Source of the DNA: a phage | Length of the DNA stretch: 64,000 nucleotides | Sequence record: PZ534511.1 | Reading direction: 5' to 3' (one strand) | In this document: positions 18,294 to 59,236 of the stretch, one piece after another | How the letters are laid out: every line of letters begins with the position of its first letter | Numbering within the stretch: position 1 is the first letter of the stretch | Program-made: the position numbers and the translations under genes | The notes under the pieces: model-generated | Told to the model about the DNA's origin: nothing | Database searches by the model: none | What the model saw: the letters and a program-made list of their open reading frames with translations, nothing else

Positions 18294-18641
18294 ATGCCAA
18301 AGATTAAAACGTTATTACTGTGGGTAGCTGTTTTAGCTTTTATAGGGTACTGGACTTGGGAAACTGAATTAAAAGATATCGGATATACCAGTCTTGAGAG
18401 CAAGGCGTGCATTGGCATAACCGATGCGTTCAGGCAAAATGCTATGGATCACGAATGTGTTGATGCAGATATAGATGAGAAACTGTCTAAGGACAAAGAT
18501 TTTTACCATGGGCATGCTTTACTTGATAGTGGTGACACTGTAGAGTTCTGGTCGTGGTTTCGTGAAGATGGAACAATAAAAACAGCAGTAAAGATCTCTA
18601 ACAAAGAGTTAATGCTGTTGCAGCAAAAGGAGGCTCAATGA
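18294..18641 (+). CDS. hypothetical protein with N-terminal TM/signal segment
   Basis: MPKIKTLLLWVAVLAFIGYW hydrophobic N-terminus. Confidence 0.45.
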   Translation: MPKIKTLLLWVAVLAFIGYWTWETELKDIGYTSLESKACIGITDAFRQNAMDHECVDADIDEKLSKDKDFYHGHALLDSGDTVEFWSWFREDGTIKTAVKISNKELMLLQQKEAQ

Positions 18642-30081: not shown

Positions 30082-30347
30082 TTATTTGTTGCTCATCCAG
30101 TTTTCCCAAGCTGCCTGATAATCTGCCTCACTACGGCGGATCTCTTCTTGCTCTTCAAGCCGGATCTCTTCTTCCAGGTACCCCAGGATATCGGATTTTT
30201 TGGTCTGGCGTAGCATCCAGTCATCTTTTTTGCGAGTAAAGATCTTATAAGCTTTCTCGCAAACCTCTTTTTTGCTACCTTTTTGGACTTCAAGAATTCT
30301 GTAGGCCATGTACTGAACTAATTTAAGCTGATCCAGACGTTTCATGA
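30082..30347 (-). CDS. hypothetical protein
   Basis: ATG preceded by AAAGAGGAAAACATC cassette. Confidence 0.45.
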
Positions 30348-30423
30348 TGTTTTCCTCTTTATGTGGTTCGTTTTGATTAGTTGATAATACAGCAGTTCGC
30401 AGATCAGTTTTTAGCAATTCATG

Positions 30424-30642
30424 CTATTTACTCACAAGGGTGTCGAAAACAAATTTTTCTTTATTGTCTAAACTCACGTATCCGATTCGACCACGCAAGC
30501 CGCAAGTAGTGCCGTACTCGTAACCATTAAGGCCTTTAACCTTCCAATCCGTACCCATTAAAACCGCATTATATTCCTGACCAACTACAAAAGCGCCCCC
30601 AGTCGATTCAATGCAAACAACTTTAATTTTACGGGTTGTCAT
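30424..30642 (-). CDS. hypothetical protein
   Basis: ORF with GGGAGAAAG RBS and upstream hairpin. Confidence 0.45.
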   Translation of the reverse strand: MTTRKIKVVCIESTGGAFVVGQEYNAVLMGTDWKVKGLNGYEYGTTCGLRGRIGYVSLDNKEKFVFDTLVSK

Positions 30643-30702
30643 TTTCTTTCTCCCTTTGTGTGGTTCTGATTAGTGGGCCTTTTGGCCCGTGTCATTATCT
30701 TA

Positions 30703-30978
30703 TTACTTACGGCGGCAGAATTCAAGCGTTTTTAATTGATAATCTTCCTCAGCCTGGAGTACAACCGCCTCGATCATTTCGTTGGCATTGTTGAAGCCAT
30801 ATCCTTTAGCGAATTCATCCGCACCACCTTCGTGATCATGTTCTGCGTTCATCGCTTCCACGAAATGGAATTCAAGATTATTGAGATAAGGGCTTGATGT
30901 TCCGTCCTCTTTTTCGATGAGATCCCAAATAGCATTAAAACGTGATTCAACTTCTTGGTTAATCCAGCTTAACATGGC
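30703..30978 (-). CDS. hypothetical protein
   Basis: ATG with GGAAGAGAGG RBS. Confidence 0.45.
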   Translation of the reverse strand, partial: AMLSWINQEVESRFNAIWDLIEKEDGTSSPYLNNLEFHFVEAMNAEHDHEGGADEFAKGYGFNNANEMIEAVVLQAEEDYQLKTLEFCRRK

Positions 30979-31187
30979 GTTTTCCTCTCTTCCGGTTGTT
31001 GTGTGGGCGCTTTTGCCCCCTTCGAGATAAATGCTACCCCACCACCTGGCAGATGTCAACGGTTTTTATAGTTTTTATATAGCAGGCACACCCGGTGATT
31101 GTCTCCCCCTGTCGCCAGGTGCCTGCCGTGAAACAAGTATAACAAAAAACAGGACCATTGCAAGCCCTGTTTTGTAGTTTATAAATA

Positions 31188-31379
31188 TTATATTTTTTCG
31201 CCTATGTAGTCCGGTCGGTTTTTCTCTGTCATGCGCTTTAGCAATTCTTGCATGTTGCTTATGGCTTGCAGTGTATCCCCTTCCAGACTTGAATCAACAT
31301 AATCAGGATCGTCTATAACCTTTCTATGATTATGATAACGCAGTACCGCCAATACCTTTCTAACTTGTTCGATATTCAT
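31188..31379 (-). CDS. hypothetical protein
   Basis: ORF. Confidence 0.4.
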   Translation of the reverse strand: MNIEQVRKVLAVLRYHNHRKVIDDPDYVDSSLEGDTLQAISNMQELLKRMTEKNRPDYIGEKI

Positions 31380-31391
31380 TTTTACCGCTCT

Positions 31392-31526
31392 TTAAAACAA
31401 GGTGCCAACCGTTTCCAATAGATCACTGACTACCAGGACAATACCGATCAGCACATACCTAACCATAAGGGGAAAGAGCGCCAATATTGCCACCACAATC
31501 CCCAAGGTGATGATTATCTTTCTCAT
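31392..31526 (-). CDS. 44-aa hydrophobic micro-protein (below ORF-track cut-off)
   Basis: MRKIIITLGIVVAILALFPL... TM-like. Confidence 0.3.
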   Translation of the reverse strand: MRKIIITLGIVVAILALFPLMVRYVLIGIVLVVSDLLETVGTLF

Positions 31527-31528
31527 GG

Positions 31529-31813
31529 TTAACGGTTTACGTAAGCTTTACCGTTTACGGTGATGGGCAGATCTTCCAGGTCTGGATCTTCCTTAAGGTC
31601 GCGAGCAAGCTCACCGCACCGGACACCCTCGAATCCGTAGTACTCTGTTGTGCCGTCCTTAAAAGTTTTAGTGGCAAGGCATAAGCGATAAGTAACCCCG
31701 ATTCGATTGACGGCATGAATATCCGTTAGATTAACCTCTTTTGCCAGCTCTTTGGCCATTACAGGCGCATTAAGTCCAACAACTAGGGCAACCACTGCGA
31801 TCATCTTTTTCAT
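31529..31813 (-). CDS. putative secreted protein (signal peptide)
   Basis: MKKMIAVVALVVGLNAPVMA signal-peptide-like N-terminus. Confidence 0.5.
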   Translation of the reverse strand: MKKMIAVVALVVGLNAPVMAKELAKEVNLTDIHAVNRIGVTYRLCLATKTFKDGTTEYYGFEGVRCGELARDLKEDPDLEDLPITVNGKAYVNR

Positions 31814-31904
31814 TGTGTCTATCCTCTTTCTGCTACGTTTAAGGCGGCGGTAACCGCCTGTTTATGCTTTGTTGGTTAATTTTCGGGTATCGGTATAAAT
31901 TAAA

Positions 31905-32120
31905 CTATGCTGTACGCTCAACTATAACAACGGTTTGGGGGATCTCACCTTCCACCACTAATAAGGCCTTTTTCTGCGTGATGGATATCTTTACCCGTTG
32001 CAGCGTGGCGGTGAAGTCTTTCATTTCGTCACGTGGTGTTTTAGTGCAATACCAGATCTCAGGCTTGCCGATCTGTAAGTTGCGTAAAAATTCTGTTTTG
32101 CCTGTTTTGTTAGTGATCAT
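31905..32120 (-). CDS. hypothetical protein
   Basis: ORF. Confidence 0.4.
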   Translation of the reverse strand: MITNKTGKTEFLRNLQIGKPEIWYCTKTPRDEMKDFTATLQRVKISITQKKALLVVEGEIPQTVVIVERTA

Positions 32121-32129
32121 TTGCCAACC

Positions 32130-32234
32130 TCACCCGATACCGTTGGAAGACAAGATCATATTAGACATGGTTGCAATCAGGCCAATACCCAGGGCAATAG
32201 CTAGGATCACCGCATCAATTAATTTCTGTTTCAT
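32130..32234 (-). CDS. 34-aa hydrophobic micro-protein (below ORF-track cut-off)
   Basis: MKQKLIDAVILAIALGIGLIA... TM-like. Confidence 0.3.
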   Translation of the reverse strand: MKQKLIDAVILAIALGIGLIATMSNMILSSNGIG

Positions 32235-32324
32235 CTTGTTTTCCTCTTCTTGTTCCAGGTGGCGGACCATTCCACCGCCTTATGTATTATGCTTTGTAAG
32301 ATGGTTGTTTGTTTTCAAACTATT

Positions 32325-32504
32325 TTAACGATAATCATCGTACGCTTTATTAACCTGGCGAATATAACATTCAAAAGCCAGATCAATAGATTTATATTCA
32401 CGGATATACTCACCATAGGAAACCACATACATTTCTATAGCTTCCTCATATGCGAGGAGAATAGAATCCAAGCCTACGATCTCAGTCTTTGCAATAATAG
32501 CCAT
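32325..32504 (-). CDS. 59-aa hypothetical protein (below ORF-track cut-off)
   Basis: ATG preceded by promoter-hairpin-RBS cassette. Confidence 0.35.
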   Translation of the reverse strand: MAIIAKTEIVGLDSILLAYEEAIEMYVVSYGEYIREYKSIDLAFECYIRQVNKAYDDYR

Positions 32505-32551
32505 GATTTTTATCCTCTTTGTGGTTGGTGGGGCTTGCCCCTTTGATTTAT

Positions 32552-32579
32552 ATACTACAGTCTTATATGGTCATGTCAA
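32552..32579 (-). promoter_or_regulatory. sigma70-like promoter (minus strand TTGACA-16-TAGTAT)
   Basis: hexamers read on minus strand, followed by GC hairpin and RBS. Confidence 0.5.
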
Positions 32580-32689
32580 CTATTTTCAAAAAATTTTTCT
32601 GCTGTGATATTTTTCCCGGTAGGGTTCGCTACTTTCAAAATTCTATCATGCACCGGACGCCCAAAAGAATAAGCGCCGTACACAGTAAA

Positions 32690-32809
32690 CTAATAATCGC
32701 CGTCAGGTTGTACTATTACCGCCGCATAGGGTACGCCTTTTTCGTTATTGCTGACAAAATAGATCACGTTGCCATTAATAGCCTCGGTGCGTTTAATTTG
32801 TTCCATCAT
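32690..32809 (-). CDS. hypothetical small protein
   Basis: ATG with AAAGAGAGG RBS. Confidence 0.35.
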   Translation of the reverse strand: MMEQIKRTEAINGNVIYFVSNNEKGVPYAAVIVQPDGDY

Positions 32810-32864
32810 GATGATTTGCCTCTCTTTATTTTCATAATTGGGGGCCTTTTCGGCCCCGCCAGGT

Positions 32865-33149
32865 TTATTTGTTGATAGCATGCAGCGGGAAAGGTACGCC
32901 AGGTTGATAGATAACTTTTACAACCTCATCAGGACAAAAGAAGTTGCAGAACTCACCGCAATAGGCCTCATCCTCTTTTAGCTCTTCATCGACATACTCA
33001 AAAAAGTAGTCGATGCTTGGATAATCCTGACCGGGATTATAGTCAACCATTGTCAGGACTAGTTCAAGATCGTTGCGTAGGATATGCATACCCGCTTTTA
33101 AGTATTTTGCTTCCATTTCTACTACATCGCCAACGGTAACAATAGCCAT
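32865..33149 (-). CDS. hypothetical protein
   Basis: ORF with GGAG RBS. Confidence 0.45.
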   Translation of the reverse strand: MAIVTVGDVVEMEAKYLKAGMHILRNDLELVLTMVDYNPGQDYPSIDYFFEYVDEELKEDEAYCGEFCNFFCPDEVVKVIYQPGVPFPLHAINK

Positions 33150-33374
33150 GGTTTTAACTCCTATCTATCCGGTTAATGATTGGGGGCCGCCCCCCTGACA
33201 CGTCCTATTATCCATATTGTAGGGCTTGATGCAAGTACTTCTTTAAAAATTTTTTAAGCGCCTTGGGGGCCGCTGTAGCGCCAAAATAATAAAGGCCATG
33301 CAACCGCATAGCCTTTATGTGATTATATCGCTGCAGGCCCTGCCATGGGCCTTATTTTGCATCATTTGCTGGAA

Positions 33375-33674
33375 TTATTCAGAGAAAACATCGTTCACAA
33401 TAGCGATCACAATGCCGCCCACCTTGTCACGGTCAACAATGCACAAATCACCATAGATCATGTGGTAGTCTGGATGATCTTTCACGGAATAGTCAATGAG
33501 TGTCTTCTTATCGTCCAGCTTTTTGACTTCCATGGTCATTGTAATGAATTGATCGTTAAATGCACTATTGCGGAAGATCATTACCTGGCCGCCTTGACAT
33601 CCAGTGATCTCAACTTCCACGCCGTCTACGATCTGACCATCAAAGAAATAAAGATTATTGGCGGGTATAAACAT
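33375..33674 (-). CDS. hypothetical protein
   Basis: ATG with AGGAG RBS. Confidence 0.45.
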   Translation of the reverse strand: MFIPANNLYFFDGQIVDGVEVEITGCQGGQVMIFRNSAFNDQFITMTMEVKKLDDKKTLIDYSVKDHPDYHMIYGDLCIVDRDKVGGIVIAIVNDVFSE

Positions 33675-33718
33675 GATCATTGCTCCTTTTTGCACTGATT
33701 ATTTTAACAGGGTTTAAA

Positions 33719-33763
33719 TTTACTTTATTGATGGTCCTGGAGTCAAGACCATCTAAAAATAAA
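33719..33763. repeat. 45-bp palindromic element, copy 1 of 3
   Basis: TTTACTTTATTGATGGTCCTGGAGTCAAGACCATCTAAAAATAAA. Confidence 0.7.
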
Positions 33764-33765
33764 TT

Positions 33766-33966
33766 TTACAGGCCTACAATCTCTTTGATTCGTTTAACTG
33801 CTGCCTCAGCGCCTTGGGGGTAGAAATTATGATAACCAATCACGCGGGTAATACTGATCGCCACCTGATGATCTTCATAATACCCCTTGAATATTTCTTG
33901 ACCATCAACCAGCACAGCAATTTTTTCTTCTTTTTTGAAGTTAATAACGCGGATATTGTTGCTCAT
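33766..33966 (-). CDS. hypothetical protein
   Basis: ATG with AAAGGAGAAAC RBS. Confidence 0.4.
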   Translation of the reverse strand: MSNNIRVINFKKEEKIAVLVDGQEIFKGYYEDHQVAISITRVIGYHNFYPQGAEAAVKRIKEIVGL

Positions 33967-34110
33967 TTTGTTTCTCCTTTTGGAACTTTGTCTATGTGGT
34001 GGGGGAGTGTCTCCCCGTTGATTGTTATTATCCATATTCTGGACCGGATTGCAACACCCCGGAAGAAAAATTTTTTGAAAAGTTAGGCCCCCAGGGATCG
34101 GGGGCCGTTA

Positions 34111-34230
34111 TCAGGTGCGTACAGCGATAAAATACATCCCTACGCCTAACAATATTTCAAGGGCGATGATCTCCAGCCATACCATAACACGGCGCGCCTT
34201 ATCGGTGCGGGGCTTATCCTTGGGTGTCAT
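34111..34230 (-). CDS. 39-aa hydrophobic micro-protein (below ORF-track cut-off)
   Basis: AGGAGGAAAGGGGGG RBS; TM-like C-terminus. Confidence 0.35.
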   Translation of the reverse strand: MTPKDKPRTDKARRVMVWLEIIALEILLGVGMYFIAVRT

Positions 34231-34250
34231 CGTCTCCCCCTTTCCTCCTG

Positions 34251-34472
34251 TTAGTAGTGACGTGGTTTGCAATGGCCCCCAGGAGTATTATCACCACGCA
34301 CATTACAAGAAAAATTATCTCTGTCGTTGTTCGATCCATTGTTATAAAATTCCTTAAGATCAGGCCTGAAAATAAAGCTTTCATTATTGAATCCATCCCG
34401 CCAGGCGGCTGGCCTCAAATCTTCACTAAATGGATTAATTAACGTGGTATTATTTAAACGGCTGGCCCACAT
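34251..34472 (-). CDS. hypothetical protein (frame ambiguous with overlapping 34214-34339 TM peptide ORF)
   Basis: two overlapping ORFs in different frames; cannot decide by eye. Confidence 0.25.
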   Translation of the reverse strand: MWASRLNNTTLINPFSEDLRPAAWRDGFNNESFIFRPDLKEFYNNGSNNDRDNFSCNVRGDNTPGGHCKPRHY

Positions 34473-34821
34473 ATTTTCTATTCCTCTCAAATAAGCGATC
34501 CGCCTCAGTTAAACAAATCTCATGGGCGTGATCTCTGGTTTTAGCTTCATCGAAAACCTGTTGTGCAAGGCTGCAACGTAGGGAGACTGGAAGATCACTA
34601 TAATAGGCGTTGACAAACGTTTGAGCGTCGTACAGGTCTGAAAATACTTTACCCTTTCTATTATTCCCCTTGTCAACAATTGCAAGGATAACCAATACAA
34701 TAGTTGCAACCACCCCCAGGAAAATAGATATAATAAACCATAAAAAGGCGGATCTTCCCATCTTGCCAGCGATCCAGGCGTTAAACAAGGCAACCAATAC
34801 AGCCAAAATAATAAATTCCAT
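34450..34821 (-). CDS. membrane protein
   Basis: two hydrophobic helices; ATG with AAGAGG RBS. Confidence 0.45.
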   Translation of the reverse strand: MEFIILAVLVALFNAWIAGKMGRSAFLWFIISIFLGVVATIVLVILAIVDKGNNRKGKVFSDLYDAQTFVNAYYSDLPVSLRCSLAQQVFDEAKTRDHAHEICLTEADRLFERNRKYVGQPFK

Positions 34822-34885
34822 TCTATGTACCTCTTTTACAGTTCTGATTAACAATAAGGCGGCAAATATGCCGCCTGTTACCTGA

Positions 34886-35266
34886 TTAAAAATTATCGCC
34901 GTAAATCTTTCCGCTTTCTACCCATACCACCACGCGAGGCATACTATCCCACACGTCTTGTTTTAGATTGAGCGCGTGCAATTCTTCGGTGGTGCTCATA
35001 CCGGGCACGGGCTGATTGTATACTGCAAAACGACCACCCGCATAATCATAGGCTAGAGTTAAATCACACTGGATCATCTTTTTGATCATGGCATTAAGCA
35101 TGGCGTTAGCCGCATACTGATCACGTTTTAAAGGCAACTCTTTGATTAGTTTGCGATAGTTTTCGATATGGTCGCACACTGTTTCACGCGGAAGATCTTT
35201 CATATCCTCGCGAAAGGTAACCAGGTTAAACATAACGGTGTCAATAGCTTTAGTAGTGTTTTTCAT
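34886..35266 (-). CDS. hypothetical protein
   Basis: ATG preceded by promoter-hairpin-RBS cassette. Confidence 0.45.
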   Translation of the reverse strand: MKNTTKAIDTVMFNLVTFREDMKDLPRETVCDHIENYRKLIKELPLKRDQYAANAMLNAMIKKMIQCDLTLAYDYAGGRFAVYNQPVPGMSTTEELHALNLKQDVWDSMPRVVVWVESGKIYGDNF

Positions 35267-35320
35267 GATGTTTTCCTCTTTGTTTTGTGTGGGGGCAAAC
35301 GTCTTGCCCCCTTGAGTTTT

Positions 35321-35348
35321 AATATAGCAGGTTTTTAGGTTATTGCAA
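35321..35348 (-). promoter_or_regulatory. sigma70-like promoter (minus strand TTGCAA-16-TATATT)
   Basis: hexamers on minus strand followed by GGGGGCAAG...TTGCCCCC hairpin. Confidence 0.5.
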
Positions 35349-35356
35349 CACTTTAT

Positions 35357-35980
35357 TTATGAAAAAGTCATCTCGCCATCTTCATCCACATCAAACCGCC
35401 AATCATTGGCCTCGATAAGGCCGATCAGGTTTTCGGTAGTGAATTGTTCAAGATAGGCCCCCTCCAGGTCTACGTAAACCTTGCGGGATAGCTCCCGTAC
35501 CGTCTCGGTGATCAGCTCTTCCAGGTCTTCCACTTTGTTTTCTTGTTTGGCGGTCAGATCTAGCCAGGTGGTATCAATGTATCCGCTTACAGTGTTTTCA
35601 TGGCTGTAATGGCTGTACTTGTCGCGTTCAACACTGGCTGATAACTCGCCATCGTGCATTGTGCCGAACAAGTGACGAATTGATCGGAACTTGGTCAGGG
35701 CCTTTACTTTACGCAAAAATTTTTCTAAATCCACGTTTTCAGCACTGATTGAAGCGCCGTCACCCTGGCACCAAAAGCCGGACCAATGTACTTCGGTATC
35801 TTCAAGGCCGTACTCTGGAAAGATATATTCTTTGTAGTGTTCAATTACACTTTCTGCAAAAAAGTCATCCCCGCTGTGTTCTTCTCTTTCGCGTACCATT
35901 TCAATGGCTTTTTCTTTTTGTTCGTCGGTCAGCACGTCGAAAGATAAATTGTAACCTGTGGTAATGTTAACGGTGGTCAT
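35357..35980 (-). CDS. hypothetical acidic protein
   Basis: 207-aa ORF; no confidently recognised motif. Confidence 0.5.
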   Translation of the reverse strand: MTTVNITTGYNLSFDVLTDEQKEKAIEMVREREEHSGDDFFAESVIEHYKEYIFPEYGLEDTEVHWSGFWCQGDGASISAENVDLEKFLRKVKALTKFRSIRHLFGTMHDGELSASVERDKYSHYSHENTVSGYIDTTWLDLTAKQENKVEDLEELITETVRELSRKVYVDLEGAYLEQFTTENLIGLIEANDWRFDVDEDGEMTFS

Positions 35981-36037
35981 GATATTTTCTCCTGTTTTCT
36001 TTGTTAGTGGCGGGAAGTTTTCCCGTTTACGTGTTTA

Positions 36038-36065
36038 AGTATACTTATCAAGATTTACTTGTCAA
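36038..36065 (-). promoter_or_regulatory. sigma70-like promoter (minus strand TTGACA-16-TATACT)
   Basis: hexamers on minus strand followed by CGGGAAAACUUCCCG hairpin and RBS. Confidence 0.55.
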
Positions 36066-36315
36066 CACTATTTTTTAAATTATTGTGGCGCAAAATGTTT
36101 AAAATCTCCTCAACGTCATCAACACGGCGGCAATTTTTAAACGCTACCAATTGCCCCATGATTTTAATCACTGGGCGGCCTTGCCAGTGCCCCTGGAGAA
36201 AGCGCGCCTTGACTTTATCGGTGGAACTATCACGCCACCAAATAGCCTTGTTGTTGCAGTAGTAAAAATTATTCAGGACAACATCAACTTTATCAAAATT
36301 TTTTAATTTACGCAT
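36055..36315 (-). CDS. hypothetical protein
   Basis: ORF with AAAGGAG RBS. Confidence 0.4.
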   Translation of the reverse strand: MRKLKNFDKVDVVLNNFYYCNNKAIWWRDSSTDKVKARFLQGHWQGRPVIKIMGQLVAFKNCRRVDDVEEILNILRHNNLKNSVDK

Positions 36316-36496
36316 GGCGTTTACTCCTTTCTCTCTTTGATGTGGTTAGTATAGCTAACCTGTTGACGATGTCAATGATATTTTTAACGCCATAAAACGG
36401 CCTTGGGCGATGTTTTCAGGTTAAAGGGGGCGATTGCATAGGTGGGGGCCTTTTTGGCGCTTACAGGGCCAACCAGGGGCGCTATTCGTAGGATAG

Positions 36497-36525
36497 AAAT
36501 AAAAAGCCCCGCACAATGGCGGGGC
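36497..36525 (-). terminator. rho-independent terminator (minus strand)
   Basis: GCCCCGC-cauugu-GCGGGGC hairpin followed by UUUUUAUUU on minus strand. Confidence 0.55.
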
Positions 36526-36533
36526 GTTGGTTG

Positions 36534-36734
36534 TTATTTGTCTTTATGGCGGTATCGTTCTGCCTGTCGTTCACGTTCCAAAAGTAGGCCGGGCAATTTA
36601 CGATCATAATGATTACGCCAGATCTTCCCAAACCTTTTTGGCTTATTCAGTTTATTGTTACGCTGGCGGCGTTCTGGCAGCTCTTCGGAATCATGAGGGC
36701 GCTTTACAATTTTCTCGAAATTAATTTTCATATA
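36534..36734 (-). CDS. small highly basic protein
   Basis: Arg/Lys-rich; ATG with AAGGGGGG RBS. Confidence 0.4.
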   Translation of the reverse strand, partial: YMKINFEKIVKRPHDSEELPERRQRNNKLNKPKRFGKIWRNHYDRKLPGLLLERERQAERYRHKDK

Positions 36735-37077
36735 TTCCCCCCTTGCTAACTTCAATATTGGCCTGAATAGCCCGGATACGGCGCTTTATAACTTCCTGAT
36801 CTGTGTGATCGTATCCCCAAAAGTCTACAATTTTTGCGCCCCCAGCCTTTAGGCGGTATAGTGTTTCCTGCATTTTGTAAGCCGGGATCGGTCGCGGTGT
36901 TACCTGGTCGCCCTTCTCATTCTTGTACTTGATAATGTAGTCTTCATTGTCGTTGAATACCCAAAATGGGTATTCTGTGAGCGCGTTGCTCTCTTTTTCG
37001 TTTTTAGATTGGATCTTGTTTACAATTAAAGCCGTAGCAATAGCGCCAATAATAAAACTTGCCCCGCTGATCATGTA
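36721..37077 (-). CDS. membrane-anchored protein
   Basis: N-terminal TM helix; AAAGGAGA RBS. Confidence 0.45.
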   Translation of the reverse strand, partial: YMISGASFIIGAIATALIVNKIQSKNEKESNALTEYPFWVFNDNEDYIIKYKNEKGDQVTPRPIPAYKMQETLYRLKAGGAKIVDFWGYDHTDQEVIKRRIRAIQANIEVSKGGIYEN

Positions 37078-37149
37078 CTTTCTCCTTTCATTGTGTTGAT
37101 AAACTGTCTTTATAGATGGCCCTGCTACCAGGACCACCGAAAAAACAGC

Positions 37150-37395
37150 TTATTTGACGATACCGACAAAACAGATCCCGCCTTCCCCTATATAGGCAAT
37201 ATCGGTAATTTTATAATTTGTCAAGATCCGCGTGTTCAGATCATTAATAAAATCGGTCATCGCGTTGGTGTAGTTGTCTTCCGTGTCTAAGGCATAATCC
37301 CAGGTGTAAACCTTTTTACGTCCGAAGCCTTTTACCATGATACGGGCGCTTTTGGTGTTGGTGGGCGCATAATATTTTGTGATTAGTGCTGCCAT
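37150..37395 (-). CDS. hypothetical protein
   Basis: ORF with GAGGAG RBS. Confidence 0.45.
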   Translation of the reverse strand: MAALITKYYAPTNTKSARIMVKGFGRKKVYTWDYALDTEDNYTNAMTDFINDLNTRILTNYKITDIAYIGEGGICFVGIVK

Positions 37396-37435
37396 GGTTT
37401 TAACTCCTCATTAGTTCAGTGTTAACAGTGTAAAG

Positions 37436-37480
37436 TTTACTTTATTGATGGCCCTGGAGTCAAGGCCATCTAAAAATAAA
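37436..37480. repeat. 45-bp palindromic element, copy 2 of 3
   Basis: TTTACTTTATTGATGGCCCTGGAGTCAAGGCCATCTAAAAATAAA. Confidence 0.7.
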
Positions 37481-37482
37481 TT

Positions 37483-37824
37483 TTACTCGTTTTCTTCCAG
37501 CTCTGAAAGCTCTTCTTTCATTTCTTCCAGCTCTGTCTGCAATTCCTGGTATTCTTCATCGTCCTCAATATCCAGGCTGTCGATGTAGTCGCTAAATCCG
37601 CAGCGGTAAGCGATAGGATCTAACTCCTTGAGGATACGCGACGGAAGAAAAGAAATGTTTCCGATCATAATTTCGCCGTAGATCTCGTCTAACCATTCAT
37701 CATAGTTTTCGTCGTACTTGTCCTCGTCGATTTCAAAGTTATCGATCTTATTCTCAAGGTCTGCGATCTGTTTTTTCAGTTCAGCGATCTGCATAGCTTT
37801 TTCTGCGGCGGTCATAGTAGTCAT
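37483..37824 (-). CDS. acidic coiled-coil protein
   Basis: Glu/Asp-rich heptad-like sequence. Confidence 0.45.
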   Translation of the reverse strand: MTTMTAAEKAMQIAELKKQIADLENKIDNFEIDEDKYDENYDEWLDEIYGEIMIGNISFLPSRILKELDPIAYRCGFSDYIDSLDIEDDEEYQELQTELEEMKEELSELEENE

Positions 37825-37875
37825 GGTGTTTTTCTCCTTTTGTGTATTCTGGGAAGTTTTCCCGTTTATGTGCTT

Positions 37876-37903
37876 ATTATATCGATTTAAGTTAGCTTGT
37901 CAA
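37876..37903 (-). promoter_or_regulatory. sigma70-like promoter (minus strand TTGACA-16-TATAAT)
   Basis: consensus hexamers followed by GGGAAAACUUCCC hairpin and AAAAGGAG RBS. Confidence 0.6.
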
Positions 37904-38023
37904 TTAAAAGTTTAAGAAAAATTTTGCGACACCGTTGGCGCTACCCATCAACATTTGCGCCAGGATGTACCCAATGATGCAAACGATAATAGTTACCTTT
38001 GTGTGCTGGCGTGTAGTACTCAT
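37904..38023 (-). CDS. 39-aa hydrophobic micro-protein (below ORF-track cut-off)
   Basis: GAAAGGGGGG RBS; TM-like. Confidence 0.35.
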   Translation of the reverse strand: MSTTRQHTKVTIIVCIIGYILAQMLMGSANGVAKFFLNF

Positions 38024-38057
38024 CTTTAAGCCCCCCTTTCCGCTCAACTGTGGTTAG

Positions 38058-38102
38058 TTTACTTTATTGATGGCCCTGGAGTCAAGGCCATCTAAAAATA
38101 AA
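38058..38102. repeat. 45-bp palindromic element, copy 3 of 3
   Basis: TTTACTTTATTGATGGCCCTGGAGTCAAGGCCATCTAAAAATAAA. Confidence 0.7.
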
Positions 38103-38103
38103 C

Positions 38104-38499
38104 TCAGTAAGTTTTCAGTACTTTCCCGTCCAACCTGTCTAACTGAATCTCAATAGCTGCAGAAAACCTATTGTAAACCACATCGCCCAGGGAGTCCAGC
38201 CAATCTATGACGTTATACACCTGCTCTTTATTCTTGCAAGTCCGGATCCGTTTCATTACGTAAGACGGATCAATATTAGCGCTCTCGTTGTTGTGGTCAT
38301 GCGCCTGGCCTGCTGCGCTAGTTATAGATTTTACAACCACCTGAAAGGGCTTTAAGGTGCCTTTTGCGTTCATCTCACGCGCTTTCGCGGCGCGGTTGTT
38401 GTATGTTACACAACGGTGGCAAATGTTGACCAAATGCATATCAATAATTTTTTCATCGTTTGCCAGTTCGTTCATGATGCGGCGTACGTTCTTATTCAT
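38104..38499 (-). CDS. hypothetical protein
   Basis: ORF preceded by hairpin and AAAGGAAAAAAG RBS. Confidence 0.45.
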   Translation of the reverse strand: MNKNVRRIMNELANDEKIIDMHLVNICHRCVTYNNRAAKAREMNAKGTLKPFQVVVKSITSAAGQAHDHNNESANIDPSYVMKRIRTCKNKEQVYNVIDWLDSLGDVVYNRFSAAIEIQLDRLDGKVLKTY

Positions 38500-38583
38500 G
38501 ATCTTTTTTCCTTTGTGTTGGCGGGAAACATTCCCGCCTTTTGTGTATAGTTTACTTGAATTTTGCAGCGTGTCAATAATTTT

Positions 38584-38982
38584 TTATTCGTGGGCACATG
38601 TTACAATGTGTTTTTTATAGCCCAGGTGGTCAGCAAGTGCCGACAAAAACTCTTCTTCGTAGATCCAGCCGTCGGCAGTGATCCCCATAGCATTTAATGC
38701 GCCCTCAAGTGCTGCGTTAGCTTTATCGTAACCGTGACCGCTCGCCTTGCCGCCAGTATAACCGTACTTATTGTTCTTGTTGTCGTGAATCCAAAACACG
38801 CAGTAGTGAGTGTTCCCGCTGGCGGCGGCATAATACCGGATCTCAGCTACTTCGTGCAAATTATTGTCATCGTCCAGGCCCACCAGATTATAAGCCTTGT
38901 AAAATCCACGATCACGGCGGCAGTTCTTGACATCAGAAAAAGAAAAGTCCGCATTATCAAAATTAAAGGTAGTGGTTTTCAT
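38584..38982 (-). CDS. hypothetical protein
   Basis: ORF with AAGAGGA RBS. Confidence 0.45.
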   Translation of the reverse strand: MKTTTFNFDNADFSFSDVKNCRRDRGFYKAYNLVGLDDDNNLHEVAEIRYYAAASGNTHYCVFWIHDNKNNKYGYTGGKASGHGYDKANAALEGALNAMGITADGWIYEEEFLSALADHLGYKKHIVTCAHE

Positions 38983-39046
38983 GATTTTATCCTCTTAGTG
39001 TCTTTTGTGCTTTTAGTGTATTTGGTGTCGGACTATATGTCAATAC

Positions 39047-39244
39047 TTATTTTTTATTAAACCAGTGGTTGATCTGTCCTTTTGTCAGGGCGCAACGATC
39101 AAGCTGTTGCAGGGTATAGCTATGACCGCGACGAAATTTATAAAGGCCTTGCCCGTTGTTAATGGTTACATCCACCCGGCAAATCACTTGATTGGTGACC
39201 ACCTGGCGAGTGTTGCGACGTACTTTGATCCCGTATGCGTTCAT
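39047..39244 (-). CDS. hypothetical small protein
   Basis: internal ATG with AAAGAGGA RBS. Confidence 0.35.
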   Translation of the reverse strand: MNAYGIKVRRNTRQVVTNQVICRVDVTINNGQGLYKFRRGHSYTLQQLDRCALTKGQINHWFNKK

Positions 39245-39325
39245 AAATTTATCCTCTTTACTGGTTAGTGCGGTGTTGTTCACCTTGTAGGGTAATAATA
39301 CCATGATTAACCTTGTTGTCAACGA

Positions 39326-39610: not shown

Positions 39611-39639
39611 TTGACAGCGGCCCCGCCAGGCGGCATAAT
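39611..39639 (+). promoter_or_regulatory. plus-strand sigma70-like promoter (TTGACA-17-CATAAT) inside the minus-strand block
   Basis: hexamers preceded by A/T-rich tract; points into noncoding repeat region. Confidence 0.5.
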
Positions 39640-39959
39640 ATACCTATCGAAAGGACGGCAGGCACCGGTGACGGGGGAGACAACCACCGGGGATGGGCGC
39701 TTCATAAAATGAGAACGGTTATCATTATCATTTAAAAATTTATGCAAAAAATCCTTGCCTTCTTTGTCCTGTGTGATACTATAATAACAAGCCGGGGCAG
39801 CAGGGGCCGGGAGACAATCACCGGGCCTGCCCGTTATTCTGCAAACGAGAATAATTATCATTCAAAATTCTAAATAAGAATCCCTCGCATTTAATAAATT
39901 TAATTAGCATGCTAATTACCCTCCGTAACAATTTCCTATAAAACAGTGCCCCATAAAAT

Positions 39960-40440
39960 ATTCCCATATAGAAATTTTAAAAATCCATTTCTGAAAACGA
40001 AAAATAGATTTCGTCCCCAAAAATTTCAGGTCGAGATCCGGAACGATTTCCAGAAAATCCGATTCAGAAAACGAAAAACAGATCGAGTACTGAGAAATTT
40101 ATCGAGAAAAATTTTCAGAAAATCCAAGCCCTGGAATGAAAAGTAGATCGAGTACCTGGAAAGCTGCACCGCAACTTCAAGATAGTGGTTAGATTGTTAC
40201 CATAGAAGGTCAAGGGTAAGTGGAGGAAGTTCTAGTAGAGGGAGGTTAGCATGTGTGGGAAATCTATAATGGTGGTCTGGAATATGGTGCAAACGATAGG
40301 ATGAGCTATTCAGCTTGTCGCGCCTACTCTGAAAAATCCATTTTAGTTTTCGATCCATTTTCTGATTTTCTAAGAATTTTAAAATATCCAGCCCGGTGAA
40401 ATATCAAAAGGAGGAAATCCATTTTAGAAATCCCCCTTAT
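39960..40440. repeat. degenerate tandem and dispersed repeats in noncoding DNA
   Basis: recurring TTTCAGAAAATCC, GAAAACGAAAAA, AGATCGAGTAC and AAATCCATTTT words. Confidence 0.55.
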
Positions 40441-46188: not shown

Positions 46189-46271
46189 TATGGAATCTCC
46201 GATTTTATTTGAACAACATAGAAGGAGACACTATTTTAGCATCCCCTTCTGCAAATTACAATAGGTATTTG

Positions 46272-47219: not shown

Positions 47220-47476
47220 GCTTCCTCGTCGTCTAAGGAGTTGAAGATTTCACCGAAGTATTCTAAGACTTCTAGCTCCCGTGTGGTGCAGAAAACACAG
47301 TCACCGTTGTCATCCTCGATAACGGCCTCTTTACCCAGCACATCTACTTCAAGTTTATCGTTCAACAGGACGGCCCCTGTGTAAACTTTGTCAGCTGTGC
47401 AGTCCCGAAAAGCGGAGTCCTTCTCCAGATAGTCTGGCTTAACCTTGGCTTTAATTCGTTGATATTGTTTGGTCAT
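47216..47476 (-). CDS. hypothetical small protein
   Basis: internal ATG with AAGGAG RBS. Confidence 0.4.
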   Translation of the reverse strand: MTKQYQRIKAKVKPDYLEKDSAFRDCTADKVYTGAVLLNDKLEVDVLGKEAVIEDDNGDCVFCTTRELEVLEYFGEIFNSLDDEEA

Positions 47477-47539
47477 TGCTATGGTCTCCTTTTTCTTAGA
47501 TGGGGCCATTATATCTGGCCCCATCTTTCTTGTCAAGTA

Positions 47540-57533: not shown

Positions 57534-58833
57534 TTAAGGCCGGGGTAAGTTTGTAATAACGGAAGCCACCACCACCTTGCCAGTTTACAGACTTAGAAAT
57601 ACCACCTTGATCTTCGCCATCGATCACTTTTTCCAAGCGCGGAATAATATGGGTATGACAATGATCACCCAGTTCGATCAAGATCCAACGTCTTTTCATT
57701 TTGTGAGCTACAGCAGCAGTAGTTCCCGAACCACCGAATGAATCCAATACCAAATCGCCTTCTCGCGTACACATCTCGAAAATCCGCTTCAAAAGCGCTT
57801 CTGGTTTTTTACCATTTTTGAAACTAACGCCACCTTCATTTGCTATTCCATTCCAACTAATATCTGTCCAAACATCAGTTATTAGTTCCGCAGGCTGCAT
57901 CTCACCGTCAATTTCCAAAAGCCTGTTGGAGTAAAAGACCATTTGCCTACCATTTGCGATATAAAATCCTTCAACATCCTCATTTGGATGTACATAAACC
58001 TTATCCCTGTCTTTCTTTGACTTCTCGATAGTTTCTTTTCTCTTTATTTTAGCACCACCACCAATTGCAACAGATTGAAATACACGTTCTGCATTATCAA
58101 TTGCGAATTGTGCTAATTCATCATCGAATGTGTCAGGCAGTTTTTTCTTGGCTTCTTTTGCATCTTTATAGCCATTGGCCTTTGCAAACGCATCGGCAAT
58201 ACCACACCACGTCCAATTTTTATAATGGTCATCCGGGTTTAATAGGTATTTGTTATATCCTGTATCATACCCTTTAGGTATATAGATTTTGTTAAGCGGT
58301 TTCTGGTTGCGATCTTTTGCATATACAAGCAAAAAGTTTGCTGTGGAGAAAACTGTGGCTCCTGTTGCCTTAAATCCTGAAGGGGAATTTGTGGTCATCG
58401 AGATGGTATTTAACTGATTTGCACGACCAAAAATCTCGTCCATCAAAACTTTTAAATACGCCATTTCGCAACCATCTAAGTGAACGAATATTACCCCATC
58501 ATCACTCAGAAGATTACGAATTATTTCTAACCTATCCCTCATTAAGCCCAGCCAAATGGAATGCTCCAGGCTATCATCGTAGTGCTCAAAAGCCCTCCCG
58601 GTATTGAATGGTGGGTCTATGTAAACACACTTCACTTTGCATGCATACTCTTGCTCTAGCGCCTTCAATGCTAATAAGTTATCTCCAAAAATCAGTTTAT
58701 TATCAAAAATATCGTTTTCGGTCACCTTCTGGCTGTGGTAAGATTTGCTAGAATCTTCTAACAAAATGTGCGGCTCTAACTTTTTGCGCTCGTTTTTACC
58801 TATCCAGGTAAGTTCTAATTTGGTTTTACTCAT
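57508..58833 (-). CDS. DNA methyltransferase (beta-class N6-adenine or N4-cytosine)
   Basis: motif IV IDPPF before motif I FGGSGTT (beta-class order). Confidence 0.7.
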   Translation of the reverse strand: MSKTKLELTWIGKNERKKLEPHILLEDSSKSYHSQKVTENDIFDNKLIFGDNLLALKALEQEYACKVKCVYIDPPFNTGRAFEHYDDSLEHSIWLGLMRDRLEIIRNLLSDDGVIFVHLDGCEMAYLKVLMDEIFGRANQLNTISMTTNSPSGFKATGATVFSTANFLLVYAKDRNQKPLNKIYIPKGYDTGYNKYLLNPDDHYKNWTWCGIADAFAKANGYKDAKEAKKKLPDTFDDELAQFAIDNAERVFQSVAIGGGAKIKRKETIEKSKKDRDKVYVHPNEDVEGFYIANGRQMVFYSNRLLEIDGEMQPAELITDVWTDISWNGIANEGGVSFKNGKKPEALLKRIFEMCTREGDLVLDSFGGSGTTAAVAHKMKRRWILIELGDHCHTHIIPRLEKVIDGEDQGGISKSVNWQGGGGFRYYKLTPALIAKDMSDQ

Positions 58834-58894
58834 CGTTTGGTGCTCTCCTTAGTTTTTGTGGGGAGGAGTGCCTCCCCTTTATACTCACACCTTA

Positions 58895-59236
58895 CTACTC
58901 AAGGTCTTCAGAGTCAAGCTCAAAAAGAATCAAACTGTGCATGCCTGCAGAGAGATTAACACACCCTGCAACAATAAGGGTTTGATAGTAAGGTCCAGCA
59001 CCCTCAATGTCTTCGTTAAAATCTACAACAAGGTAGTCACCTTTGTTAAAGGTGTATTTGTCCGATGTAAACGCAAAACCTGCCCAGTCTCCTACTGCAG
59101 GATCTTTATCAGTCACCTTTGTTAGCAGTAGATCTTTTTCACGAGATCTTTTAGTAAAATCGTGAATCACAACATTCTTCTCTTCAGGAGTCGGATTGCC
59201 ACACACGTAGTTAACGATATTTCTCCACAAACTCAT
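58895..59236 (-). CDS. hypothetical protein
   Basis: ORF with AGAGGGG RBS. Confidence 0.45.
   Translation of the reverse strand: MSLWRNIVNYVCGNPTPEEKNVVIHDFTKRSREKDLLLTKVTDKDPAVGDWAGFAFTSDKYTFNKGDYLVVDFNEDIEGAGPYYQTLIVAGCVNLSAGMHSLILFELDSEDLE

Follow-up and report, generated by a model that had tools for sequence, protein, structure and literature searches.

Promoter-early stem-loops (PeSLs) were defined in the T4-like phages RB49 and phi1 as units in which an AT-rich tract, a near-consensus sigma70 early promoter and a polyG...polyC stem-loop precede the Shine-Dalgarno (SD) sequence and ATG of the next gene (Arbiol et al. 2010, PMC2839356). They are concentrated in hyperplastic ORFan regions, were proposed to be recombination sites for modular gene shuffling, and fall into five subclasses by the position of the stem-loop, a position downstream of the -10 hexamer included (PMC2839356). 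When the stem-loop of PeSL211/210 was placed between a strong promoter and lacZ, expression was cut about as much as by rrnB T1 (PMC2839356). Later work extended PeSLs to other T4-like phages only, namely T4/PST and KVP40/nt-1 (Comeau et al. 2014, PMC4122927). Here, we describe a repeated promoter-hairpin cassette in a 64,000-nucleotide (nt) stretch of phage DNA (record PZ534511.1, hereafter the window), and argue that such units are probably PeSL-type early-gene cassettes whose 5' hairpin stabilises or insulates the mRNA and whose repeats mediate the exchange of gene modules.

The window belongs to a Vequintavirus, an rV5-like coliphage with 92-94% identity to vB_EcoM_Gotham and rV5 across the whole region studied. 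Its genes lie on the plus strand from 1 to 26 kb and on the minus strand from 29.4 to 64 kb, and the region of interest is the counterpart of rV5 ORF164-195, a minus-strand run of small genes that are all annotated as hypothetical. Sigma70-type promoters and terminators were predicted for this region in the rV5 genome paper, which describes no promoter-hairpin unit, and the promoter entries of the Gotham record are PhagePromoter predictions only. We found no earlier description of the cassette in the literature on rV5 and phAPEC8, and no transcription-start maps, transcriptomes or half-life data in that on Vequintavirus and Phapecoctavirus; an Rfam 15 scan of the whole window gave no family match at gathering score.

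A promoter, a hairpin and a U-poor leader repeated before small genes

A preliminary description of the window had proposed that a sigma70-like promoter, a GC-rich hairpin and a ribosome-binding site (RBS) recur as one unit in front of minus-strand genes. The unit is real: 11 minus-strand genes carry a full cassette, ten of them at 30.6-39.3 kb and one at 58.8 kb, and the plus-strand block at 1-26 kb carries none. Each cassette runs, in order, through an AT-rich tract, a sigma70 promoter, an A-rich gap of 8-12 nt, a G(n)-loop-C(n) hairpin, a leader, an SD and an ATG. The cassettes, named by gene start, and one hairpin-less leader of the same stretch are as follows (gap is the distance from -10 to hairpin; z compares the leader fold with shuffles).

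38497-38576, minus: cassette of gene 38499-38104; -35 TTGACA 38576-38571, -10 TAAACT 38554-38549, gap 10 nt; hairpin GGCGGGAATGTTTCCCGCC 38538-38520, leader AACACAAAGGAAAAAAGATC, ATG 38499; fold -14.6 kcal/mol, z = -4.09
37822-37903, minus: cassette of gene 37824-37483; -35 TTGACA 37903-37898, -10 TATAAT 37881-37876, gap 12 nt; hairpin GGGAAAACTTCCC 37863-37851, leader AGAATACACAAAAGGAGAAAAACACC; fold -5.5 kcal/mol, z = -1.74
35978-36065, minus: cassette of gene 35980-35357; -35 TTGACA 36065-36060, -10 TATACT 36043-36038, gap 12 nt; hairpin CGGGAAAACTTCCCG 36025-36011, leader CCACTAACAAAGAAAACAGGAGAAAATATC; fold -7.5 kcal/mol, z = -1.63
35264-35348, minus: cassette of gene 35266-34886; -35 TTGCAA 35348-35343, TGn-extended -10 TATATT 35326-35321, gap 9 nt; hairpin GGGGGCAAGACGTTTGCCCCC 35311-35291, leader ACACAAAACAAAGAGGAAAACATC; fold -15.9 kcal/mol, z = -3.87
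33964-34054, minus: cassette of gene 33966-33766; -35 TTGCAA 34054-34049, -10 GATAAT 34032-34027, gap 10 nt; hairpin GGGGAGACACTCCCC 34016-34002, leader CACCACATAGACAAAGTTCCAAAAGGAGAAACAAA; fold z = -2.84
33147-33234, minus: cassette of gene 33149-32865; -35 TTGCAT 33234-33229, -10 GATAAT 33212-33207, gap 11 nt; hairpin GGGGGGCGGCCCCC 33195-33182; fold z = 0.16
32502-32579, minus: cassette of gene 32504-32325; -35 TTGACA 32579-32574, -10 TAGTAT 32557-32552, gap 10 nt; hairpin GGGGCAAGCCCC 32541-32530, leader ACCAACCACAAAGAGGATAAAAATC; fold -6.9 kcal/mol
30973-31059, minus: cassette of gene 30975-30703; -35 TTGACA 31059-31054, -10 TAGCAT 31036-31031, gap 10 nt; imperfect hairpin GGGGGCAAAAGCGCCC 31020-31005, leader ACACAACAACCGGAAGAGAGGAAAACGCC; fold -10.8 kcal/mol, z = -1.64
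30640-30725, minus: cassette of gene 30642-30424; weak promoter TTGAAT 30725-30720, 17-nt spacer, TAAGAT 30702-30697 (8/12), gap 8 nt; hairpin GGGCCAAAAGGCCC (GGGCC-AAAA-GGCCC) 30688-30675, leader ACTAATCAGAACCACACAAAGGGAGAAAGAAA; fold z = -2.65
39242-39322, minus: weak example at gene 39244-39047; TTGACA-16-TATTAT (TGn-extended), gap 10 nt; 4-base-pair hairpin GGTGAACAACACC 39284-39272; fold z = -0.85, alone not significant
58831-58917, minus: outlying cassette of gene 58833-57508; TTGACT-17-TAAGGT, gap 11 nt; hairpin GGGGAGGCACTCCTCCCC 58877-58860, leader ACAAAAACTAAGGAGAGCACCAAACG; fold z = -2.71
30343-30403, minus: leader of gene 30345-30082; box ACTAATCAAAACGAACCACATAAAGAGGAAAACATC (CCACATAAAGAGGAAAA) present, no hairpin, poor promoter (8/12, no -35)

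The promoters TTGACA-16-TATAAT (37903-37876) and TTGACA-16-TATACT (36065-36038) are exactly as first described, and the hairpins GGGCC-AAAA-GGCCC, GGGGGCAAGACGTTTGCCCCC and CGGGAAAACTTCCCG lie 8-12 nt after their -10 hexamers. The eight gene starts listed at that time have the full unit with one exception: those at 30642 (with its weak promoter), 32504, 33966, 35266, 35980, 37824 and 38499 hold up, and the one given as 30347, really 30345, is without a hairpin. To these we add the cassettes at 30975 and 33149, the weak one at 39244, and that at 58833, outside the range first considered. Good promoters without a hairpin also occur within the stretch, before the starts 36315, 38982 and 29936.

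Leaders are 20-35 nt long, ACACAAAG-like, U-poor and A/C-rich (A 54%, C 20%, G 17% and T 9%, against 25% T in the region), and often contain CACAAAG or a near variant. Across the minus strand of the 10-kb stretch, 6 of 11 occurrences of ACAAAG precede a start codon by 17-25 nt. AT content averages 73% over the 25 nt before the -35, against 57 +/- 11% in the region, with recurrent AAAAATTTTT-like tracts. Most of the promoters match 9-12 of the 12 consensus positions (8/12 at 30642, 33149 and 58833). Moreover, the spacer is 16 nt in 8/11 hairpin cassettes and in 2/16 other window promoters (Fisher P = 0.003), 14 of which have the spacer at 17-18 nt; the hairpin-bearing promoters thus form a distinct subclass.

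The geometry of the unit is fixed on one side and loose on the other. Between the -10 and the hairpin there are 10.3 +/- 1.1 nt (range 8-12), whereas the hairpin and the ATG are 27.8 +/- 4.1 nt apart, which ties the hairpin to the promoter or transcription start and not to the ribosome site. Taking the seventh nucleotide after the -10 as a predicted +1, the first paired base falls at +3 to +7 and the predicted unpaired 5' tail is 2-6 nt. The proposal that transcripts begin just before the hairpin agrees with the constant gap, given this predicted start, and the same gap of 10-12 nt recurs in three other genera. By contrast, the stems and loops of the window have no common sequence (loops CACT, TGT, AAC, AGACG, ACA, CAAG and AAAA), and the stems contain zero G.U pairs. 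The cassettes at 37824 and 35980 are 92% identical in hairpin and initial transcribed region (repeat family D7).

We scored enrichment with a conservative energy-based criterion, namely dG <= -5 and a hairpin start 7-13 nt past the -10; a perfect stem of at least 5 pairs with at least 4 GC proved too strict and missed most cassettes. Between 29.4 and 39.4 kb, 7/14 promoter-gene pairs have such a hairpin against an expectation of 0.03 per promoter (P = 5.5e-8), a count that includes one spurious promoter call before a class B repeat (37395, see below). Scoring six hits against the density of hairpins in intergenic DNA only still gave P = 2.7e-4, and the enrichment is far above chance. Among controls, one of 8 plus-strand pairs at 1-26 kb and one of 7 minus-strand pairs above 39.4 kb scored, both through terminator-like or non-cassette hairpins, and the plus-strand promoters of the same phage lead directly to the SD with no hairpin between. 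Every predicted leader folds into a single 5'-proximal hairpin with the SD unpaired. Five of these folds have z <= -2.6 and the remainder are weaker; the value at 33149 is explained by G/C runs that also fold in the shuffles.

The RBS box repeat extends into the first 4-5 codons (ATGAAAAMCACTAC) of unrelated genes at 35253-35283 and 38969-38999 (family D1, 87% identity), which suggests N-terminal crossovers or selection for A-rich early codons.

Cassettes in relatives, in other genera and at gene-content differences

Close relatives of the window (L001-L008) keep the cassettes, and wherever the stem region differs the stem is retained. The hairpin at 33966 is GGGGAG-ACA-CTCCCC in the window and GGGGA-GCTAA-TCCCC in relatives, with top pair and loop changed; that at 32504 is GGGG-CAAG-CCCC against a longer GGGGC-AACAA-GCCCC; the one at 31813 has an altered loop in relatives; and that at 33149 has a different sequence in L004 and L008. 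As these eight relatives are 92-94% identical and offer few stem changes, the stem-preserving changes are anecdotal. An IMG/VR search for orthologous cassettes with a 207-amino-acid protein returned only two close loci. At 36348-36400, an insertion of 23 nt (TTGACAGTGATTTTATTTAAAGC) in relatives L001-L004 and L006-L008 repeats the -35 region of the 36315 promoter and creates a tandem or slipped promoter, like the degraded PeSLs of Comeau et al.

The same arrangement of -10, 10-12 nt, hairpin and U-poor leader is present in four genera, Vequintavirus, Phapecoctavirus, Avunavirus and Asteriusvirus, and as a minority subclass in the Krischvirus RB49. Cassette geometry predominates in early regions of these other phages, occurring at 16/21 promoters of Phapecoctavirus tuntematon (for example TTGACA-16-TAAGAT gtatcacata GGGCGGGAAGTGGTTTCCCGCC aacaacagagag...ATG) and at 7/15 promoters of the jumbo Asteriusvirus ph0011 (for example TTGCAA-16-TATAAT gttttacatgaa GGGGAGAAATGATTCTCCCC aagaacaggag...ATG), and the same promoter-hairpin architecture is found in Avunavirus 24-2-1. 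In all of these genera the most frequent gap is 10-11 nt (range 10-12 nt in the three besides Vequintavirus), while the stem sequences differ; AAU(G/A)G-type loops recur in two genera, Phapecoctavirus and Asteriusvirus. In the literature searched, this conservation of 5' geometry across families, together with module exchange, is undescribed. A broader proposal, which we offer as tentative and rather doubtful, is that selection has kept the cassette as a 5'-end device shared by the early mRNAs of large virulent coliphages. A host or phage factor common to them might recognise it, given the AAU(G/A)G-type loops of two genera, and it would also flag a cross-family pool of self-expressing ORFan modules passing between unrelated phages of the same host.

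Pairwise comparison with six relatives revealed eight gene-sized differences, with their junctions in leader boxes, hairpins or a composite terminator/promoter, and with inserted open reading frames (ORFs) that bring their own cassette. Gene 30424-30642 is missing in L004, L005 and L008; the crossover lies inside the leader common to both flanking cassettes (ACTAATCA...CCACAyAAAGrGGA), and the promoter and hairpin from upstream pass to the downstream gene. Insertions in L003, L005 and L006 at 31147-31187, 32176-32250 and 33367 each consist of a promoter, a GGGCGGCAATAGTGCCGC hairpin resembling the Phapecoctavirus-type cassette, a leader and an ORF. The first of these sites is the composite terminator/promoter, which is an insertion junction in L004 and L005, and the second is the leader of gene 32234. 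Beyond the preliminary description, the cassettes match the published PeSL cassette and, on sequence comparison, are junctions of gene gain and loss between relatives.

Exchange also seems to reach further. Window ORFs at 32325-32504, 32582-32737 and 35429-35931 are held in common with Asteriusvirus ph0011 (L016), and L015 10005-10141 matches RB49 (L018) 18356-18483. Small ORFs common to rV5-like, phi92-like, jumbo and T4-like coliphages have 65-88% nucleotide identity, and the homology ends at the start codon, with different cassettes upstream. A tblastn search with a 90-amino-acid protein that the rV5 annotation links to RB49 did not return RB49 among the matches listed (40 of 148, a spread sample). 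The direct-repeat families of the region consist of RBS boxes, hairpins and class B elements, and we propose that cassette repeats may supply short homologies for insertion, deletion and exchange of modules within Vequintavirus and with other coliphages.

What the 5' hairpin may do

In the model that we consider probable, unmodified host RNA polymerase would read the near-consensus sigma70 promoter and start a few nucleotides before the stem, making each small ORF its own expression unit with an AT-rich, UP-like tract. In the transcript made from the cassette itself, the stem-loop would fall within the first ~25 nt and cap the 5' end of a monocistronic early mRNA, leaving few nucleotides unpaired. 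A 5' end capped in this way would be expected to hinder RppH and the 5'-end sensor of RNase E and so slow 5'-end-dependent decay. RNase E prefers U-containing sites, and the U-poor leader would offer few of these while staying open for ribosomes. In read-through transcripts the hairpin would fold locally, keeping leader and SD open regardless of the sequence upstream. Finally, the repeated leader/RBS box and the hairpins would provide the homology by which a cassette and its ORF are exchanged as one module.

Several observations weigh against this model. Some hairpins are weak (37824 at -5.5 kcal/mol, 32504 at -6.9 kcal/mol, 39244 with z = -0.85 and 33149 with z = 0.16), and four promoters of the same stretch are without one. 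Protection of the ompA type tolerates about 2-4 unpaired 5' nucleotides, and the predicted tail of 2-6 nt is at or above this limit. Common descent of the cassettes, and not selection, could account for part of the fixed geometry, and a PeSL stem-loop without a good U-tract cut lacZ strongly, which keeps an attenuator role in play. As to exchange, gene-sized indels necessarily end between genes, so the location of the junctions is only suggestive; overlapping homology (10-31 nt) is found at only some junctions, and a deletion junction in Gotham has no obvious homology.

In the original PeSL reading, the stem-loops are transcription attenuators or terminators that damp read-through, so that each ORF relies on its own promoter. 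The lacZ effect of PeSL211/210, comparable to that of rrnB T1, would fit, as would the TATACTACAC that follows this stem-loop in RB49 (L018) in place of a classical U-tract, and in the window, cassettes crowd together and canonical terminators between them are few. We nevertheless consider attenuation unlikely here, since a hairpin downstream of the predicted start of its cassette would reduce that cassette's transcript just as much, and since a stopper of read-through needs no fixed 10 +/- 1 nt from the -10, a position that varies in RB49. The sense-strand 3' flanks of the 11 hairpins are A/C-rich with a U-tract in none, which together with the 9% T of the leader indicates that the hairpin is not a sense terminator. 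Canonical U-tract terminators do occur elsewhere on the minus strand (36525-36506, 34106-34086, 33318-33289 and 29498-29481), indicating that the phage employs U-tracts where it terminates. The preliminary description had instead suggested that the hairpins act as terminators of antisense, plus-strand transcription, and four of them do look terminator-like on that strand (35291, 38520, 34002 and 37850). As a general property this fails: at least 5 T are found in the first 8 nt of the plus-strand flank in 5/11 cassettes, and the other six flanks are not T-rich (several GTGTCATT- or TGACACGT-like, also TTCGAGAT). Flanks are CTACGTGAT-type in Phapecoctavirus and CTACGTGAT- or TTGATGTAAAA-type across tuntematon and ph0011 cassettes. 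The stretch is free of plus-strand genes, its plus-strand promoter matches are only weak ones (9/12), and the T-richness is the A-rich initial transcribed region read backwards. In addition, relatives' hairpins have 11 G.U pairs in the sense fold against 3 in the antisense fold (P = 0.03), which speaks weakly for a structure in the coding-strand RNA; taken together, antisense termination is very improbable.

The remaining alternatives accept a sense-strand element and differ in what it does. If hairpin and leader acted mainly in translation, as an insulator, ribosome standby site or S1-binding enhancer with stability secondary, one would expect what is seen at the leader: no fold pairs the SD or the leader, the leader has a strong excess of A and little U, ACAAAG has its preferred place before the ATG in 6/11 occurrences, and the RBS box, first codons included, is the most reiterated repeat (families D1 and D5). 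Yet the hairpin is placed relative to the promoter and not to the SD, and on the plus strand of this phage no hairpin stands between promoter and SD. The translational control by the hairpin that was first proposed is unlikely, as every fold leaves the SD free and the spacing between hairpin and SD varies; a mainly translational role, which is compatible with the model above and not exclusive of it, is a little less likely again than attenuation. It is improbable that the hairpin has no function of its own and hitch-hikes on a promoter lineage spread by copy-and-paste recombination. The unusual 16-nt spacer common to hairpin cassettes, near-identical pairs such as 37824/35980 (92%), and inserted modules whose hairpin almost equals that of Phapecoctavirus cassettes would all follow from such spreading, but most hairpins and gaps of the window are unrelated in sequence with pairing and position kept, orthologues vary loop or stem top while keeping the stem, and the geometry persists with differing promoter variants in four genera. 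Slightly more improbable, in our estimate, is that the inverted repeats are binding sites at +3 to +25, as DNA operator or RNA hairpin, for a factor that shuts off or marks early transcripts. Operators classically lie just past the start, a place that these repeats overlap, and stems and loops are fairly uniform in Phapecoctavirus and Asteriusvirus (GGGCGGCAATGGTGCCGCC, GGCGGGAATAGTTCCCGC, GGGGAGAAATGATTCTCCCC), where AAU(G/A)G-like loops recur. In the window, however, stems and loops share no sequence and only pairing is kept; paralogues exchange C-G for G-C pairs, sense-strand G.U pairs occur in relatives, and conserved pairing without conserved sequence points to a nucleic-acid structure rather than a sequence-specific site.

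Readings based on CsrA, RegB or RNase III were dropped, as the loops are without GGA, the records carry no annotation of such a nuclease (no search for one was made), and the stems are too short for RNase III.

Other promoter-hairpin classes and described systems

The window holds further combinations of promoter and hairpin. Class B is a 57-nt repeat, TTTATTTTTAGATGGCCTTGACTCCAGGGCCATCAATAAAGTAAAC, present in three copies and one degenerate copy; in the copy at 33718-33753 a C-G stem pair has become T-A by compensatory change, and the class is a PeSL-like subclass distinct from the leader-hairpin cassette. In the composite terminator/promoter, a hairpin (31173-31146) encloses the -35 and is followed by a T-run and then the -10. 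The promoters at 46200-46260 and 47499-47536 form a PeSL subclass in which the hairpin overlaps the -10.

38046-38102, minus: class B copy 1, TTTATTTTTA-GATGGCC-TTGACT-CCAGGGCCATC-AATAAAGTAAAC; stem-loop encloses the -35 (TTGACT-18-TAAACT), T/A-rich tract upstream (family D2)
37424-37480, minus: class B copy 2, core identical, precedes gene 37395-37150 (families D2 and D3)
33707-33763, minus: class B copy 3, precedes gene 33674-33375; stem C-G changed to T-A on both arms (GATGGTC...GGACCATC)
37108-37144, minus: degenerate fourth copy of class B
31136-31173, minus: composite terminator/promoter, AAAACAGGGC-TTGCAA-TGGTCCTGTTTT, TTG, TATACT; listed by the scan as both terminator and promoter
47474-47536, minus: promoter TTGACA-17-TATAAT with the -10 in the loop of GATGGGGCC-agaTATAAT-GGCCCCATC, precedes gene 47476
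46200-46260, minus: promoter with the -10 in a hairpin loop, AGAAGGGGA-tgcTAAAATagtg-TCTCCTTCT

Upstream of genes 32234 and 31813 (32257-32300 and 31845-31875, minus strand) we observed ACAAAGCATAAT or ACAAAGCATAAA, followed 2-6 nt on by a GGCGG...CCGCC hairpin, with no recognisable -35; these may represent a different promoter class with ACAAAG as upstream element. Another conserved GC-rich element, GGGGGAGACAAYCACCGGG, occurs in three copies (31091-31109 on the minus strand, 39673-39691 and 39807-39825 on the plus strand), each forming part of a longer, imperfect stem (GGCAGGCACC...). A promoter-like site precedes two of them (31163-31136, and TTGACA-17-CATAAT at 39611); upstream of the third only a TATAAT was seen by eye, unscored. 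The two plus-strand copies stand in a largely non-coding stretch, and the element could be a small RNA or a protein-binding site. The segment 39560-40450 has few convincing ORFs, direct repeats TTCAGAAAA(C/T)... (~39989-40120) and divergent promoter-like sites; on the rV5 map it is probably the 'non-coding' box, and it may serve as an origin or for packaging.

PeSLs have so far been described only in T4-like phages. The presence of this cassette logic in rV5-like, phi92-like and jumbo coliphages as well would make it a general means by which large virulent phages retain and trade self-expressing accessory genes, many of which probably have host-takeover or anti-defence functions. A 5'-proximal hairpin with a U-poor leader would make a testable design rule for early-mRNA stability and context-independent translation, one that could serve phage engineering and synthetic expression cassettes. 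In annotation, the motif marks the true starts of very small ORFs, and it predicts where therapeutic phage isolates differ in gene content.

Three described kinds of element invite comparison. Intrinsic terminators are, like the cassette hairpin, short GC-rich stem-loops in intergenic DNA. They differ in standing downstream of a gene end, whereas the cassette hairpin stands downstream of a promoter, has no sense U-tract and is inconsistently T-rich on the antisense side; the definition of a GC-rich hairpin with an immediate U-tract thus fits it on neither strand. Stabilising 5' stem-loops are known from the ompA 5' untranslated region, the T7 phi10 leader and engineered 5' hairpins (the work of Belasco and of Keasling). 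The cassettes are similar in having a hairpin near the predicted 5' end followed by an unstructured, U-depleted leader and SD; they differ in that the 5' end is a predicted one with a borderline tail, and in being repeated and mobile elements instead of gene-specific ones.

The closest relationship is to PeSLs. Differences concern host, position and kind of evidence: the window phage is a Vequintavirus (Vequintavirinae), unrelated to the Straboviridae and outside the T4-like scope, which is the described range of PeSLs and not a mechanistic feature; its commonest subclass lies after the -10 at a fixed 8-12 nt, probably within the transcript, whereas in RB49 (L018) the stem is mostly between or over the hexamers; and promoter and terminator activity and mini-circles were demonstrated for RB49 and phi1, whereas the cassettes of the window are described here by sequence. 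In one RB49 cassette (L018 22243), the stem follows the -10 as in the window, and RB49 leaders are A/C-rich (for example AACACAAAACAAAAGGAGAA), as are ours. The window also holds subclasses around the -35 (class B, and 31173-31146) and around the -10 (47476). All PeSL features that can be assessed in silico are present, namely AT tract, sigma70 promoter, G(n)-loop-C(n) stem-loop, SD and ATG at the 3' end, repetition before small ORFans in a plastic region, and location at indel or replacement junctions of close relatives, the last judged without a formal null for junction placement. By these features, the cassettes of the window appear to be PeSL-type elements of a non-T4 lineage in which the leader-hairpin subclass predominates, an assignment that we hold with more certainty than the stabilising step.

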